DNA of 17,197 nucleotides, counting the filler, from Kondoa subrosea (Eukaryota): the NCBI GenBank assembly GCA_039545335.1. It is 10 parts of 10 records of this genome, joined end to end, with 100 filler letters (N's around TTAATTAATTAA, not from the genome) between each part and the next. Parts side by side here need not be neighbours in the genome. Positions count along the whole stretch, not along the records: positions 11,996 to 13,484 come from BCIN01000024.1; 9 more parts are not named here. One strand, given 5' to 3'. Shown piece after piece: positions 88-14,293 of the stretch. Position 1 is the stretch's first letter; each line of letters begins with the position of its first letter. The notes under the pieces were generated by a model. That model searched no databases, was not told the origin of the DNA, and saw nothing but the letters and a program-made list of their open reading frames with translations. A program made the translations under genes and the position numbers.

Positions 88-1777
88 TTAAATAGGGCTA
101 GCCATCAAACCGGTAGGTCNGCCAGAAGGTGATGTACTGGTCAGCTGAATTATAGGCGGAGGGGGCATGCAAAGCTTGGACAGATCTTTTTCGATTGCCG
201 CAGTGTGAGGTGATTGGGGTGCAGGTTGTGTGAAATAAGGGTGCAGCAATGCTCGCTTGGCGCTAATACGAGACGGTGGATCATACTTCATGATTCGCTG
301 TGTAGAGCAACTCAGCATGACGATAGACAAAGTTCAACGGATCTTACATTAAAGAGGTCAAGTCCGTTAGAATCAAGGTTTGTCAGAATATCGTTGACTT
401 TGCCTGGTTTCCAGTGCGGGAAAACGGGTTGATAATCTGATAAAGGCTTGTCAGCTAGAGTTTCAGCAATGAAAGCTCGCACTAACCAGGTAGCTGCGTT
501 AGACCGGGCCACATTGCTTCTGTCGGTGTTCCAAAGGTTCTGCCCAGTCATCTTAGCGAACCCTAGCACACTGCCACTAATGAGACGCACTGGAAAGTCT
601 TGAGCAACTGTCCTATCTCAGAGTCACCAGCGAGTAAAGGACACCCTGTGACCCTTTGGAGAACAATGAGCTCTCAGAGATCTAATTGATCGGAGCCAAT
701 CTCACATTTCAGCAAAAATAGCGCCACAAGACCACATGTCGATCGAAGATGCGTAATGTCGAGTGCCCAGAAGAACTTCCGGGCCTCGATACCAAAGAGT
801 GACAATCTAAAACCGCTTCAAATGTCAGAATATGTTTTGCATGACATCTGGCTTGAACAAACCTCATGAGTGTAGGTTCTTAAAGGAATTCCAAAGCATC
901 TCGCCAGACCGAAATCAGCAATCTTTAATGTTCCGGTCGAGTCAATGAGCTGTGGTAAACCATGTCAGCGGTGCGAACATCCACGCAGACGAAGAAGCGC
1001 ACCAAGTTTTGAGGTTTCTACCGCAGCGCAAGTCAGTCAATAGTCAAGTCAAGATTAGTCATACGCACTAAATCTCGATGCAAAATACGCCTTTGATGTA
1101 TGAACAGGCAGCCCAGCAGCAGCTGATACATGAATTTCTGCAGAGCAAAGGTGTCAATCACAGGGCCAGTACGGTTGTCGCCCCTCGAGCCATACCTTTG
1201 CAAGGTCTGCAGGCAACGCTCGATGCTGAAAGATGGATGAACGATTGTTGGCATCGGCTACTAGAGGTGTCAGAGATGCCGCTTTCCTCTCTCCGACAAT
1301 GTCCATGTATTTCTTGAGGTCCATGTCCAAGAATTCGCAGACCAACACCAATTTCGAATCAGAGTGAATAACGTCCAATAGTCTTTGAAGTAGAGTAAGC
1401 GCTAATCTTCAAAGAGATCACATGAGCATACCGAACGATATTCTGACCTCCATCGACGATGCCCATAGCCGCATTCTCGTCTGCAATACTGCAACATTCC
1501 TTCAAAAGCGAAATTTCCCTCACAGCTGTCGACGGAACACCTTCATCTACTTCCTCCAGCCTGATCTTCTTCAAAGCGACAATTCGACCGGTAGGAATGT
1601 GCTTGGCTTTCGTGACGACTCCATAAGTGCCTGTTTGTAGAAATCTTGTTTAGTTTTCAACGCTGCTCGAGCGCGTATTACAGACCTTCGCCAATCTTTT
1701 CCTGTGTATGTTCTGCATCAGCTGCGCCTTATTGCGTTGAAGAAACAGGAACATACCATTCGAGTATAGGCATCCAT
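88..1777 (-). CDS. CDK1: Cyclin-dependent kinase, CDK1/Cdc2/Cdc28 family, divergent (PSTAVRE); complete, 12 exons
   Basis: Manual splicing at GT-AG introns gives [22 protein letters not shown]...[27 protein letters not shown]...[29 protein letters not shown]...|KFMYQLL...[55 protein letters not shown]...[60 protein letters not shown]...|[22 protein letters not shown]...stop. ATG at 1777-1775, TAA at 90-88; short exons at 1757-1777, 1686-1701 and 1003-1017. The family call is firm; strict orthology to CDK1 is less so. Confidence 0.93.
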
Positions 1778-1977
1778 TTCAAGCGCGTCTTTCCAAAGGA
1801 GTGTGATAAGGCAATAAGACACAAGGCAGTCAAGTGAAGCGCAGTGATAGAGAAAAGAAAACGAGTGTGGTGAAGCAAGAATAAGCTGTTGAAAGAGCTA
1901 GATTCAGAAAATCTGTAATGTCGTCGCGTGGATTCTCGCTCACTGGCAGACTTCTTTGGCTCCTGATTCGCAGTCGT

Positions 1978-2390: not shown

Positions 2391-3021
2391 GTGCCCTATA
2401 TGGCATTGCTCTACAAAACCAAAAGACATGGAATAGAGATTATACATCCCGCTTCATTTGATCATATTGGTCTACTGGCCCAATGATTCGACGTCAAGCA
2501 AGGTCCATAGCTTGCGGAGGTATTGAGCTTGTCGGAGGTCTTGGCGGAGTACAGCAAAAGATACCTCGCTTCCTCTGCAAGTCTTCACATGCCTAGCAAT
2601 GAAGCCTGGTACATGCTTTTGCAATACCGGTTCCTCTCACCTCGCGTCCCGAGTGAGCCCCTACCCAGTGCCTGCTCTTCATAGACAGCGCTGATCGGCC
2701 CTGCAGTCCTTACATGACCCACAATAAGGCGCAATACATGCATCTCCATTGCAATATTGGTTCCACTCAACTCGAGTGAGTATTCTCTGCGCCTGCTCAA
2801 GCAAAGCATGACAGCGCTGACAAAGGCTCCCGTACGATCAGCCGTCCTTTTGTAGTCTGCGCTCAAAAGTGCTACAGTGTAGTCGAAGCTTTTGTTCGCT
2901 CGACCAGGCAGAAGAGGATGGCTATCTGCGGGTCAATCAACCTCTAACGCTCGGTGGTTCTGCCTCTCGCTTCTGCTCGTCCAGTACAGTCGTATTCGAG
3001 CAAGGTGAGAGCAGACCACAG

Positions 3022-4489
3022 ATGAAGGTTGATCAGCACTTACTCTGTGCAAGCAGCTATCAAGATCTTCAGAAACGCATCTTCGCGGTCTTAGAAATCT
3101 TATCTGTCTTGCACAGTACGTATGTGCTGCAGGCACGATTACATAGAAAAGCTGATTGGAGAACAGTTCTTTGCACTTCAATCAGCTCAGTCCCTATATC
3201 ATTTCAAAGTCTATTCAGTGAAGATACCTTTCGATCTAAGCTCAGTGCTGTTGACCCAGCTGTTACGCCTGGGGAACGCGCGGACTATCTGGTGCAATGC
3301 CGTGTTTGGATTGCCTCTGAGCGTGCCCAACCGCCAAGAGCTCAACAAGGAACTTTGGATGCACTCATCGAATCAAGTCTTGCTACCAAACTTTCCGAAC
3401 AAGATTTTCTGGCCGAATTATCATCGCTCACTCCAGCACCGTCTGATGCCCAAGTTCAAGCCAGTCTGGCCTTTTATCGAGTCATGTTTGCAGGAGCCCG
3501 TGCTGCTAATGGAGAAGCGGGCGGATCAGGTGGTTCAGGTGGAGAAGGGTCAAGCGGAGCGGACGCAGAACTCTTCCTTCGCGATATTCAAGCCAACTTG
3601 GCTGCAATGCAAGCNCAACAAAACATGGACTTTCTTTCCCAGCTCAAATCGTTTGGCTCAAGCGAAGAGAAGGGAGTTCCTTCAGCCGTACAAACCTTTT
3701 TACCTCATCTGGCTACGCTCGGTCAAAACAACGGGGATCCTCACATCCAAAAAACAATCAGCATTGTGCGAGCCTTTTCCCTCGTCACTCAATTGAGTTA
3801 TTCAGCAATGCAAAGCTCAACCTTGCCGCGACGGTCTACCCGATCCTCTCTGGAAAACTGTGTGCCTCGATCAATATATGGATCTTGAGAAAGTCAATGC
3901 TGCCATCCAGCCCGGTGCAGCCATTCAAGAACTTCCAACAAAACTCTCAGAAGATCTCTCGGTCATCAAGTCGGGTTCATTTACTGCTAAGCGTACGCTC
4001 CGGACCGAGAGCGATTGGAACCGATGCTGGTCAGCTTTGGAGCATGCGATTACCATGGTCTTCCCTCATCGCAAAACTGATTTGGTCAACTATCGTATAC
4101 ACATTGAGAGCATTTTTCGCACTTCCTCCTCTGGCCAACACGATCTTCGTGCCATATCGGTCGATCGGCTCCATCGATCCAAGTCGATAGGAGCAAGTTC
4201 CGATTGGATGAATACACTCATCTCCAACTTCAGCTCTGGCACGTTAGCATGTGTGATAACTCGGCTTCTTCCTCCTTTGGATAGTACCTCTTCTTCCTCT
4301 GCTTCTTCGGCCAAGCGGTATAAAGCAGAAGCTGATCCAGCCTTGCAAATTTGTGACAACTACAATTTGCGGGAGTGCGCTAGCCCTTGTCGATACAAAC
4401 GAAAACATGTCTGCTCCGGCTGCGGAAAGGAGCATGCAGCTCAATCCGANCCCGCTTGTCTCGAAATTGCAAGAAAGGCTCAGATTTAA
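3022..4489 (+). mobile_element. Gag-like ORF resembling fungal tyrosine-recombinase (DIRS/Ngaro-type) retrotransposons, frameshifted near 3780-3800
   Basis: Long intronless coding stretch in an intron-dense genome. Contains LWKTVCLDQYMDLEKV and WSALEHAITMVFPHRKTDLVNYRIHIESIF and ends in the Cys/His cluster ICDNYNLRECASPCRYKRKHVCSGCGKEHAAQSXPAC, which resembles ORF1 of such elements from my recall. No RT, RNase H or YR domain is present before the contig ends. Start uncertain. Confidence 0.55.
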
Positions 4490-10398: not shown

Positions 10399-11895
10399 AA
10401 GCCTGAAGCTTCTGCTCTGTACATCGAACAAACTCCTGAACGCAAAGTAAGCTCTTCCATAGCATCCGCTCGGTTTCAACTTATGTACTTGCAAATTTCA
10501 GGTCGCTGCTCAGATTGAGTTCTACCTCAGTGATCACAACCTTCCCTTTGACAAATTCCTCTTCGAAACAACTCAAGGAACTCTCGCTTCCGATGTACAA
10601 ACTTCTGCACCAGGAACAGGCTGGATTGCATTGACGACTTTACTTTCCTTCAAACGAATGAAACCTTTCCAAGAACTTGGTCTCGCCAAAGTAGCTCAAG
10701 CAGTTCGAGATTATTCTTCTGATTTAATGGAAGTCAACCCTGAAGGAACCAAAGTGAAAAGAACGAGACCGATTGCTGCTTTACCTTACGGAGAAGTTTT
10801 GAATCGTTCGATTTATGCTAAAGGATTTCCTTCTGAGAATGAGGTTGATGATTTGCAAGAAAAGCTGGAAAACTGGTTCAGACAGTTCGGTAGAGTGAAT
10901 CAAGTTAGAATGAGGAGAGAAGGCGGAAACGCTACAGAAGGTGCTAGCAGCAGAACTTTCAAGGTCAGTCAGGCACTTTACCTTAAGGCGATATATGACT
11001 GAGATGGGATCCACCTGACAGGGCTCAGTCTTTTGTGAATTCGCTACACCCGAAATCGCGAAATCTTTCGTTGCAATTGAACCCAAACCAACTTTCCCTC
11101 TTATCATGACTGAACCTATCATTTCAATGATGAAGTGAGTGTTCCTCATGATCAAGTGGAATTGTCTCTCATCAATGACCGCAGGCAAGATTTCATGGAC
11201 ATGAAAGTGAAGGAAAAGGGCATTGATACAAGCAAGCGTCCGTCAAAAGAAGAAGAACAGCGTAAACCCAATTCATTCAATGCCTTCAAGGTCTTGAGGG
11301 AAGCAAAGTACAGCAAAGATAACAAAGACCGTCCTGCAGGTCGACATGACAGAAGAGATGACAATCGAGAACGTCGACCAAAAACGGCTGAAGATATTCC
11401 CGAATCAGAATTGGAAGTCAAGTACTCTGGAGAGTCATACAAGATTGATCGAGAAGGCAATGTCGTTGATCCGGAAAGCATCAAATTCAAGTCTGACATG
11501 ATTTTGACTTTTACTGGCGTTGGCGATGGATCTGTAAACTATTCTGCTTTCAAACAATCGATTTTCGATAACATTGGACCTGCTTTTGTCAAGTTGCCGC
11601 ATGAGGCGAAAGAAGGCACTTGCGCATTCAAAGAAACTCTTTCGGATGAGAAGTTGACTAAATTGCAAGATTTGAAGATCAAATTGGGTGATGCTGAAGA
11701 ACCATTAACATGGACGAGGATGTCAGGTTAGCTTTCCTGCCTTGAGGGCTTGGCGTACGGTGTGCTTACAAGGTTTTTATTGATAGGCGAAGATGAANGT
11801 GCATATCATGTCGCACAGGCCAACTTCTTTGGACAAAAAAGCATCGATGAGAAGCTAGGTCGAGGCAAAGACAAAAGTGGATCAAGAGGAGGTCG
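10399..11895 (+). CDS. LHP1: La protein (Lhp1/Sla1): La motif, RRM1 and a second C-terminal RRM; partial at both ends
   Basis: KPEASALYIEQTPERK|VAAQIEFYLSDHNLPFDKFLF...GWIALTTLLSFKRMKPF...LMEVNPEGTKVKRTRP (La motif); NRSIYAKGFP...FGRVNQVRMRR...FK|GSVFCEFAT (RRM1); ILTFTGVG...AFKQSI...FVKL...GTCAF...LTWTRMS|GEDEXAY (RRM2-like). Introns at about 10447-10501, 10963-11020, 11135-11184 and 11727-11786. Confidence 0.92.
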
Positions 11896-11995
11896 NNNNN
11901 NNNNNNNNNNNNNNNNNNNNNNNNNNNNNNNNNNNNNNNTTAATTAATTAANNNNNNNNNNNNNNNNNNNNNNNNNNNNNNNNNNNNNNNNNNNN
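11896..11995. other. Artificial contig spacer
   Basis: 44 N + TTAATTAATTAA + 44 N. Confidence 0.99.
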
Positions 11996-12427: not shown

Positions 12428-12509
12428 TGGACGACATGGACAACTGGACGACATGAACGATTGGACAACTATGGACGACTGGACAACTGGACGACTGGAC
12501 GACTACGAC
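12428..12509. repeat. Short tandem repeat, unit TGGAC(G/A)AC, about 9 copies
   Basis: tggacgac-a-tggacaac-tggacgac-a-tgaacgat-tggacaac-ta-tggacgac-tggacaac-tggacgac-tggacgac-tacgac. Confidence 0.9.
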
Positions 12510-12697: not shown

Positions 12698-13222
12698 TTA
12701 TTCACGAGTAAACTGAGTGTGATGATAGCTGATCAGCTCACTGCGCGTATACCTGATGTGGAATCGAGTGGAAGTTGAAGACAGAAAGCCAGACATTGAA
12801 ATGCCCCTTGACCTCGAACGAAGATTCAGCGTCGATATCTTGGCCACTGGTACATCACGTGCTATCTCTGGCTGTGCTGTGTATGCGCAATAAATGAAGA
12901 CTGCAGACAGGTCGAATTCGCTGTCGTTGCAGGAGTCTATTGAACTTTCAGCTCCTGAAGAACATCGTTGGAACTCAGACTATGCGCAACGAAGATACAA
13001 TGACCGTTGCTGTTGACTACTGCTGAGAACTTGGGCTTTGCTTTTATTTCCCACCACTGCCTGCGAATTCTTGACTCTGACCAAATGATGCTTCTGATGC
13101 AATTCATATCAATGGCTAGCTCGATTAGATGTATCCTTTTGAACCTCTCACCCTGAATCGCCGAGCATCTTTCGTTTCCCGAGCTGGTCTTGCATGACAT
13201 TTTCTGAACGTTTCTCATCCAT
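12698..13222 (-). CDS. Possible small spliced hypothetical gene
   Basis: The ATG at 13222 can be joined through two GT-AG introns to a TAA at 12700-12698 (MDEKRSENV...DSG|SIIWSE...VNSN|GAESSIDSC...FTRE). The second donor (GTCATT) is weak and no domain is recognised. Confidence 0.25.
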
Positions 13223-13327
13223 CAATCAATACCTATCTCTAACTATCTATGTCGGGACTCATCTGTAATCGTAACATGACCCTGTCCACAACCCATTACG
13301 TGCAACACCCCCATGCAAAAAAGTAGC

Positions 13328-13332
13328 AAAAA
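13328..13332 (-). terminator. Oligo-T tract (Pol III terminator-like) directly after the tRNA
   Basis: TTTTT immediately follows G73; a T6 run lies a few bases further downstream. Confidence 0.6.
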
Positions 13333-13484
13333 CGACCACCCATAGGATTGAACTACTGGAAGGATGTCAGGTATGAAACCACTTTGTGTGCAGACAGGTA
13401 ACTCACTGGACCTCCCGATTAACAGTCGGACGCTCTAACCAGCTCTGAAAGAGGATATGGGTTAGGGATGCGCTAGAAAGAAAA
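13333..13484 (-). tRNA. tRNA-Asn(GTT), 5'-truncated, interrupted by spliceosomal-type introns (exons 13407-13444 and 13333-13355)
   Basis: Joined exons read AGCTGGTTA GAGC G TCCGA CTGTTAA TCGGG AGGTC CA|TAG TTCAATC CTATG GGTGGTC G: D loop, D-stem 3' strand, anticodon arm (GTT at 13423-13421), 5-nt variable loop, perfect T arm, 7-nt acceptor strand and G73. The insert 13356-13406 is GTGAGT...CTGAC...CCAG. The upstream 13445-13484 ends CTAAC...pyrimidine tract...CAG. Confidence 0.88.
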
Positions 13485-13584
13485 NNNNNNNNNNNNNNNN
13501 NNNNNNNNNNNNNNNNNNNNNNNNNNNNTTAATTAATTAANNNNNNNNNNNNNNNNNNNNNNNNNNNNNNNNNNNNNNNNNNNN
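13485..13584. other. Artificial contig spacer
   Basis: 44 N + TTAATTAATTAA + 44 N. Confidence 0.99.
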
Positions 13585-13805
13585 GCTGGGACCTCTTCTG
13601 TAAGTTCGCTGTTCGCTGTCCATCTTGTGACCGCTTGATTGAGATGCATGTGTTCAGGATGGAAAATCGGTTCATGCGATGTCTACCGGTAAGAAGAACA
13701 GCCAGGCTATGGATGTCGATTCTCGAGCTGGGACCTCTTCTGTAAGTTCGCTGTTCGCTGTCCATCTTGTGACCGCATGANTNAGATGCATGCGTTCAGG
13801 GTGGA
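13585..13805 (+). repeat. 142-bp-period tandem repeat (84-nt exon + 58-nt intron)
   Basis: GCTGGGACCTCTTCTGTAAGTTCGCTGTTCGCTGTCCATCTTGTGACCGC...GTTCAGG occurs at 13585 and at 13727. Confidence 0.9.
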
Positions 13806-14293
13806 CAGTCTAGTAAAGCCANTCAAGTCGATGAAAAGGAGGCTCGATCTTTAAGTGTACGTCAAAACTTTCGCTTTCGTCGCAGAACCTGTACTTACCA
13901 GCTGCCTCAGGTGCAGCCTGGTTAGTCGCTCGATATGCGCTGGGACTGCGCTTAATGCAGTGTACAGANAAGGGTTCCGTGACTTTGGACCAGTTGGGCA
14001 CAATGATGACGAAGTTCAGCGCTGAACTCCGTAGGCGTTCTCTTCTGCGCTTTGATGATCGATGCTGATGAGCTGTTAGACCTCATTCGCGACGAAATGA
14101 ACAACATTCGCGACGAAATGAAGAACGAAATGAACAACATTCGCGACGAAATGAACAACATTCGCGACGAAATGAAGAACATTCGGACTGAATTGAAGGC
14201 CGAGATTCAAGCAGCGTCAGTTCTCTCATTTAGTGGGTTCTTCGCAAACTTATTAATCTATGCAGTCGTTGTACCTGCAAGCAGGCTGCATAA
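13585..14293 (+). CDS. 3' part of a spliced gene for a low-complexity protein with a heptad-repeat coiled coil
   Basis: Six GT-AG introns splice in frame: AGTSS|DGKSVHAMSTGKKNSQAMDVDSRAGTSS|GGQSSKAXQVDEKEARSLS|VQP|XKGSVTLDQLGTMMTKFSAEL|HLIRDEMNNIRDEMKNEMNNIRDEMNNIRDEMKNIRTELKAEIQA|ARCTCKQAA, with TAA at 14291-14293. Confidence 0.7.
14084..14185 (+). repeat. 21-bp coding tandem repeat (IRDEM[N/K]N heptads)
   Basis: CATTCGCGACGAAATGAA(C/G)AA four times, with one 12-bp partial unit in the middle. Confidence 0.92.

Follow-up and report, generated by a model that had tools for sequence, protein, structure and literature searches.

Putative spliceosomal-type introns in a tRNA-Asn(GTT) gene of the fungus Kondoa subrosea

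Here we describe a nuclear tRNA-Asn(GTT) gene of Kondoa subrosea that appears to be interrupted in two places by introns of the mRNA type. At its centre is a 40-nt stretch at the very end of a contig (13445..13484, minus strand) which we judge, with modest confidence on the better side of even, to be the 3' portion of a short intron of the spliceosomal type (GT-AG, U2-type). This upstream intron would interrupt the fungal tRNA-Asn(GTT) in its D loop, after position 13 or 15, and another of the same kind, 51 nt long, would lie in the T stem of this gene (50/51). That the gene holds one mRNA-type intron, the T-stem insert, is hard to doubt from its signals; that the tRNA-Asn genes with this core, possibly all of them in this fungus, are split by one or two true spliceosomal introns is a more tentative proposition, to which we give slightly less than an even chance. 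A reading with two introns accounts for most of the facts with one idea, and its main rival is a 5'-truncated tRNA-Asn fragment at the edge of a duplicated segment.

Results

The contig and its end

The window, by which we mean the whole stretch of 17,197 bases that was analysed, consists of ten small contigs ordered by falling size. The same artificial, non-biological linker (44 N, TTAATTAATTAA, 44 N) stands at every join, so contigs that lie side by side in the window are not genomic neighbours. The tRNA-bearing contig occupies 11996..13484 and is followed by one such linker (13485..13584, no strand), whose N's begin at 13485; position 13484 is accordingly a true contig end, 40 nt upstream of A14 on the tRNA strand, and the contig ends inside the element of interest, as had been claimed. 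It is a small unplaced piece of 1.49 kb with single N's inside. A Pfam search of its seven open frames returned no family at a meaningful E-value, and neither coding nor other gene signal was found in the 1.3 kb downstream of the tRNA body.

The only repeat found in this otherwise non-coding contig is an imperfect 8-nt microsatellite, TGGACGAC, in about nine copies at 12428-12504. Elsewhere in the window, the contig starting at 13585 holds a repeat of about 140 nt within 13585-13800, in which a stretch of about 60 nt beginning GCTGGGACCTC occurs at about 13590 and again at about 13728; Tandem Repeats Finder did not report it. At 14084-14197, tandem repeats of 21 and 33 nt lie in an open frame and encode a repeated IRDEMNN-like peptide.

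The tRNA-Asn(GTT) body

Read on the minus strand, 13444..13333 is a tRNA-Asn(GTT) from A14 to G73 interrupted by a 51-nt insert. Its first piece, 38 nt covering tRNA positions 14-50 (13407..13444, minus strand), was identified from its sequence, a comparison of cores and a covariance model. The piece begins AGCTGGTTAGAGC at 13444 and comprises the D loop (AGCTGGTTA) and the 3' strand of the D stem (GAGC), a five-pair anticodon stem whose uninterrupted loop, CTGTTAA, holds the anticodon GTT, then the variable loop (AGGTC) and the opening two bases of the T stem. The second piece, 23 nt covering positions 51-73 (13333..13355, minus strand), completes the T stem and adds the T loop (TTCAATC), the 3' acceptor strand (GGTGGTC) and the discriminator base, G73. 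Directly after the discriminator, on the same strand, come runs of five T (13332..13328) and six T (13322..13317), which together make 13317..13332 resemble a Pol III terminator; Pol III terminates at such T runs.

To place this body within its family, public metagenome contigs were scanned for the exact 33-nt core (positions 17-48), which yielded 30 loci with 22 distinct sequences. The core of the window gene is thus identical to that of 30/30 metagenome tRNA-Asn(GTT) genes, all of which are ordinary uninterrupted genes; neither the D loop nor the T stem carries an insert in any of the 30. The 22 sequences do not vary at T8, A9, G10, C11, T12, A14, G15 or G73, and at least 90% of them have C13. 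Every one of the 30 genes reads TAGCTYAG where the window gene diverges. Downstream of that point the window gene retains the G53-C61 pair, the T loop and G73, with no decay over all 60 tRNA positions past the upstream break.

A covariance model built from the 22 distinct sequences gives a single strong match in the window, at the tRNA locus (38.2 bits, E 1e-10). This alignment flags three D-stem pairs as non-standard, leaves three D-arm model positions unaligned and pushes the T arm wrongly into the 51-nt insert; when the last tRNA piece is aligned on its own, model positions 52-64 fall on 13355..13343. ARAGORN found no tRNA in the whole window or in the contigs taken separately, and Rfam gave nothing at the gathering threshold and nothing at E up to 10 on 13200-13484. 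Both misses are expected, since the gene is split and truncated. The window holds no further copy of the core, just chance matches of 9-13 nt.

The T-stem insert and the introns of local protein genes

The insert between tRNA positions 50 and 51 (13356..13406, minus strand; 51 nt) starts with GTGAGT, carries CTGAC at 13370..13366 and ends in CAG. Its removal leaves a perfectly paired T stem of 5 bp (7 bp in the fold), and its boundaries cannot be shifted, because the base preceding it differs from its last base and the base following it from its first. GTRAGT occurs at 0.053% of N-free positions on both strands of the window, and the chance rates of start and end multiply to about 8e-7. That this tRNA gene has a first intron here had already been proposed, and the insert proves to be a very good spliceosomal look-alike. 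It is stronger evidence than the upstream break, and it is complete within the contig. Nor is it a recent multi-copy element, given that its contig has no extra branching or depth.

Two protein genes in the window provide the local standard. A La-protein (Lhp1-like) gene at 10399-11896 (plus strand) and a CDK (Cdc2/Cdc28-like) gene at 900-1800 (minus strand) each have many introns of 50-58 nt. Among those of the La gene, whose exon limits are backed by tblastn of homologues, are introns at 10447-10501 (plus strand, 55 nt, from GTAAGC to CAG), 10964-11021 (plus strand, 58 nt, starting GTCAGT, with CTGAC just before the final AG and ending in CAG) and 11135-11184 (plus strand, 50 nt, from GTGAGT to CAG). 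The CDK introns, read by eye, measure about 53-58 nt, start with GTATGT, GTCTGT or GTGCGT, have branch sites of the CTGAC/TTGAC type and end in YAG. Overall, introns of local protein genes are 50-58 nt long, with GTRNGY-type donors, CTGAC-, TTGAC- or CTAAC-like branch sites and YAG ends. Measured against them, the candidate intron in the T stem is typical in length and signals.

The La exon at 10466-11002 also speaks to the identity of the host. It has 66 matches, of which all the named ones are fungal, the best at 40-49% identity, and they include Malassezia, Ustilago, Agaricomycetes, Wallemia and Mortierellomycota. No relative closer than these La matches of 40-49% was found. A second protein that was searched gave no match, and a protein atlas was uninformative on the taxon. 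Elsewhere in the window, a long open frame at 2950-3612 (plus strand), part of a frame of 355 codons, is without a homologue among 8,000 scored candidates of 388-2000 residues, and its product may be a lineage-specific protein.

Intervening sequences in tRNA genes need not be of the mRNA type, and the two breaks could instead mark an intron removed by the tRNA endonuclease from a bulge-helix-bulge, or half of a tRNA gene that is permuted or split, as known from red and green algae and archaea. The D loop is one of the known places at which such genes are broken. Non-canonical introns and permuted tRNA genes are on record in Cyanidioschyzon merolae and others, where, in the passages of PMC3978253 that treat them, breaks lie outside 37/38 and there is sometimes more than one to a gene, as would be the case here. 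Those breaks, as described there, are marked by a bulge-helix-bulge at which the tRNA endonuclease cuts; in its minimum-energy fold the present precursor has no bulge-helix-bulge at the T-stem junctions, the insert does not lie at 37/38, and GTGAGT, CTRAC and YAG are not features of such introns. The host, moreover, is a fungus by its La protein. As for a permuted gene, G73 is followed by T runs and unrelated sequence, and the predicted 5' part was not found in the contig or the window. We therefore consider an endonuclease-type or permuted gene very improbable. If the T-stem insert is an mRNA-type intron, as we prefer, a gene that has kept it along with a terminator and a body perfect in all other respects would be expected to possess a 5' part as well, and the one place left for this is beyond an intervening sequence.

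The upstream break

It had been claimed that tRNA similarity stops at A14 and that a branch point, a pyrimidine tract and a 3' splice-like site stand where the D stem and the acceptor strand should be; both observations are borne out. A14, G15 and C16 match the family, and two of the six positions 8-13 do so (the window has TT at 8-9 and TCAG at 10-13). No contiguous 5' strand of the D stem or the acceptor was found upstream of A14 within 40 nt, where the best register, by hand, pairs 4/7 with the acceptor strand. In their place, the minus strand above A14 reads CTAAC (13465..13461), a tract (13460..13446) with pyrimidines at 13 of its 15 positions, and CAG (13447..13445). The branch A of CTAAC lies 17 nt ahead of the G in CAG, in keeping with the branch-site consensus (CTRAY, 6-35 nt), and a pyrimidine tract and YAG are found right at the tRNA boundary, which could shift by two bases (CAGAG). 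At the contig edge, the tRNA strand has a run of at least four T (TTTT, 13484..13481).

Chance rates were counted at 30,290 N-free positions of the window, both strands included. YAG with CTRAC ahead of it at -35..-6 is found at 0.15% of them and AG with CTRAC ahead of it at 0.28%; to the upstream break 0.15% applies, roughly doubling once a choice of two junctions is admitted. The splice-like 3' end is thus rare by chance, as the earlier argument on a second such signal at a tRNA boundary had it, and its signals are like those of the protein-gene introns in the window. At least 40 nt of the putative intron are visible (13445..13484, minus strand), as delimited from the sequence, the chance rate and a re-assembled contig described below. 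With local introns of 50-58 nt, a donor 10-20 nt beyond the edge would fit, in agreement with the expectation that it would lie just past the end of the contig. A search of the window for the predicted first exon gave one match with three mismatches, in another contig, and 28 of 200 shuffles did equally well, so that this match is not credible.

The claim that the junction falls exactly at 13/14 is not secure. CAG does stand directly before A14 in the window copy, and the first AG after the branch site there gives 13/14 (CAG, then AGC); in a second copy, described below, a 13/14 junction would end in GA, so that the exact position claimed fails there. Since the sequence reads CAG-AG-C, 15/16 is as possible as 13/14 in the window copy, and 15/16 ends in AG in both copies. 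A putative exon 1 ending in GCTCAG with the junction at 15/16 fits both copies, provided that they hold the same intron.

Three ways of restoring a D-stem 5' strand in the adjoining sequence were considered and rejected. A weaker covariance alignment (25.1 bits) lets TTTC stand for the D-stem strand at the cost of one mismatch, a single G-U pair and 2 extra nt in the D loop; acceptor pairing is then 4/7 here, and the equivalent reading of the second copy gives 2/7. Reading TAGCGC at 13475..13470 as positions 8-13 leaves the preceding bases unpaired with the acceptor strand (by hand). Lastly, the CCTC shared by both copies could form the D-stem strand if the D loop were enlarged in each, in which case the acceptor of the second copy pairs at 2/7 (by hand).

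Read graph and second copy

Two DNA-type sequencing runs from one sample were examined as contigs of a separate k-mer assembly; these runs are perhaps the source of the published assembly and hence not independent of it. A 73-nt re-assembled contig covers 13412-13484 with zero differences in both runs, at depths of 305 and 125, and the junction is accordingly not an assembler chimera. In the resulting graph, two paths enter the tRNA core, which is a shared node, and two leave it. On its 3' side, one path is the window's own contig with the insert, and along the other, a 60-nt contig, position 48 runs straight into a normal T arm, GTTAG/CTAAC, followed by the acceptor strand TTGAATC, G and five T. 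On its 5' side, one path is the window sequence and the other a 1,171-nt contig that keeps A14, G15 and T16; upstream of these the 1,171-nt contig is non-tRNA and shows CTGAC, an ATCCTCT tract as in the window copy, and GAAG directly before T16. Both 5' paths out of the core are therefore non-tRNA upstream of A14 and have intron-like motifs there. The 1,171-nt contig belongs to the second copy of the core, whose 3' acceptor strand would be TTGAATC provided that the contigs are paired correctly.

The T stems differ between the two 3' paths (CATAG/CTATG in the window vs GTTAG/CTAAC) by compensated changes at 49-65 and 50-64, and in the window copy these compensated pairs span the insert. At its other end the 60-nt contig meets a branch or a dead end in the graph; its T arm may also occur in another context, and uninterrupted tRNA-Asn genes with a different core may exist.

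Beyond the contig edge, two contigs, of 21,668 nt and 405 nt, open with the bases 13455-13484 and continue past 13484, so that the read graph forks exactly at 13484/13485, where the original contig ends. The window contig has a depth of 287 vs 144 and 148 for the 21,668-nt and 405-nt contigs, and although depth is not a copy number, there is a hint here of a two-copy segment whose copies diverge at 13485. Because of the fork, at most one of the continuations need carry exon 1; it resembles the edge of a duplicated segment, and at least one copy may be without exon 1.

These data bear directly on whether the break could be an assembly or cloning artefact, that is, a chimeric contig end. The contig is small and unplaced, has single N's and ends at a linker, all of which would suit such an origin; the 73-nt contig nevertheless crosses 13412-13484 without differences in two read sets, albeit of one sample and perhaps those of the assembly itself. 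An assembler error is excluded by the separate k-mer assembly, and at such high depth a rare chimeric clone is unlikely. The original prediction had named a chimeric contig end as a possible refutation, and together the re-assembled contig and a second copy broken behind CTGAC and ATCCTCT leave that explanation scarcely credible.

A weightier alternative is that a rearrangement or duplication edge removed positions 1-13, leaving a 5'-truncated tRNA-Asn fragment at a locus that makes no tRNA, with CTAAC...CAG a chance look-alike. The absence of the 5' strand within 40 nt, the unplaced 1.49-kb contig without a coding match, a depth about twice that of the flanking 21.7-kb contig (287 vs 144, depth not being a copy number), a graph fork of the kind seen at repeat edges and the failure of ARAGORN and Rfam to detect a tRNA are all as this explanation would have them. 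Here, as in 5'-truncated tRNA pseudogenes and tRNA-derived repeats, similarity starts in mid-molecule, within what looks like a low-copy repeat at the end of a contig. What sets the present locus apart from them is that the break coincides with the splice-like signal, expected by chance at 0.15%, that a second copy with other flanking sequence shows this too, that 60 positions past the break are undecayed with a core identical in 30/30 canonical genes, and that the terminator is kept. Truncation also leaves the mRNA-type insert in the T stem and the compensated T-stem changes unexplained. On balance we hold a truncated fragment to be unlikely, with enough in its favour to be taken seriously, and the upstream CTAAC...CAG element is very probably neither a chance look-alike nor a chimera.

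The splice signals could also be real and the tRNA no longer one: former tRNA segments would then serve as exons in a Pol II transcript, either non-coding or untranslated, whose upstream exon might be something other than a tRNA 5' part. Good local splice signals at both breaks agree with this, and Pol II would be a better match than Pol III for a split A box and for the terminal T run of the contig; if longer than four, that T run could stop Pol III inside the putative intron. Against such a transcript stand the T5 and T6 runs directly after G73, a perfectly conserved tRNA body with T-stem pairs compensated between copies, and the lack of coding or other gene signal in the 1.3 kb downstream. 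We regard it as improbable, and return to an intron-bearing tRNA-Asn gene as the preferred reading.

Discussion

If a tRNA-Asn gene with two introns is what this locus represents, the missing parts can be predicted. A first exon of 13-15 nt (the acceptor 5' strand, T8 R9, GCTC and perhaps AG) and a GT donor would lie beyond the contig edge, with the donor about 10-20 nt past it in at least one of the two continuations. In DNA, the A box would be split and the B box whole. The precursor would be spliced by the spliceosome, as is the Pol III-made U6 precursor in fission yeast, and RNase P, RNase Z and CCA addition would then trim the spliced tRNA-Asn precursor.

The closest likeness is to the U6 genes of fungi. 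[quoted passage not shown] Like U6 in S. pombe and many yeasts, the present case would be a short, normally Pol III-transcribed non-coding gene with one or more short introns; by the same part of that account, U6 introns have a canonical 5' splice site, branch site and 3' splice site, are otherwise unconserved, and occur in some paralogs and not in others. Unlike U6, the host here is a tRNA and not a component of the spliceosome, and the case is known from DNA sequence, with its putative 5' exon outside the contig. As a tRNA is no part of the spliceosome, the origin proposed for U6 introns, in which reverse splicing hits an RNA that occupies the active site, cannot be carried over directly.

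Other structured RNAs widen the comparison. Spliceosomal introns occur in U1, U2 and U5 of Rhodotorula hasegawae and in ascomycete rRNA genes (Takahashi 1993/1996 and Bhattacharya 2000, as cited in the same part of PMC5855946). The tRNA-Asn case would resemble them in that fungal spliceosomal introns settle in genes for abundant structured RNAs, some of them off the catalytic centre, and would differ in that the U1, U2, U5 and rRNA hosts are transcribed by Pol II or Pol I. Section 14 of PMC5855946 does not name tRNA genes. In the portion of PMC10275265 on the subject, tRNA splicing by endonuclease and ligase is contrasted with spliceosomal splicing. The canonical tRNA intron at 37/38 treated there is likewise an intervening sequence in a nuclear tRNA gene; the present putative introns differ from it in their positions (13-15 and 50/51), in their signals and in leaving the anticodon loop uninterrupted.

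A full-text literature search found no paper on spliceosomal introns in tRNA genes, within a scope that lay mostly outside subscription journals, and a term search of PMC8007984 and PMC13578239 turned up nothing relevant. If true, these would be the first tRNA genes with mRNA-type introns on record, as far as that search extended.

The locus also bears on annotation: if the reading is true, it would show that tRNA gene sets can be under-counted, ARAGORN and Rfam having both missed it. For the biology of this fungus the consequences, if the reading is true, would go further. Production of an essential tRNA would need the spliceosome. The split A box would pose a promoter question, in that these genes would depend either on Pol II or on a Pol III that makes do with the B box. 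The list of genes with mRNA-type introns (U6, U1, U2, U5 and rRNA) would be extended to the most abundant Pol III product, and tRNA introns, removed by endonuclease and ligase and located at 37/38 in eukaryotes, and mRNA introns would no longer be separate worlds.
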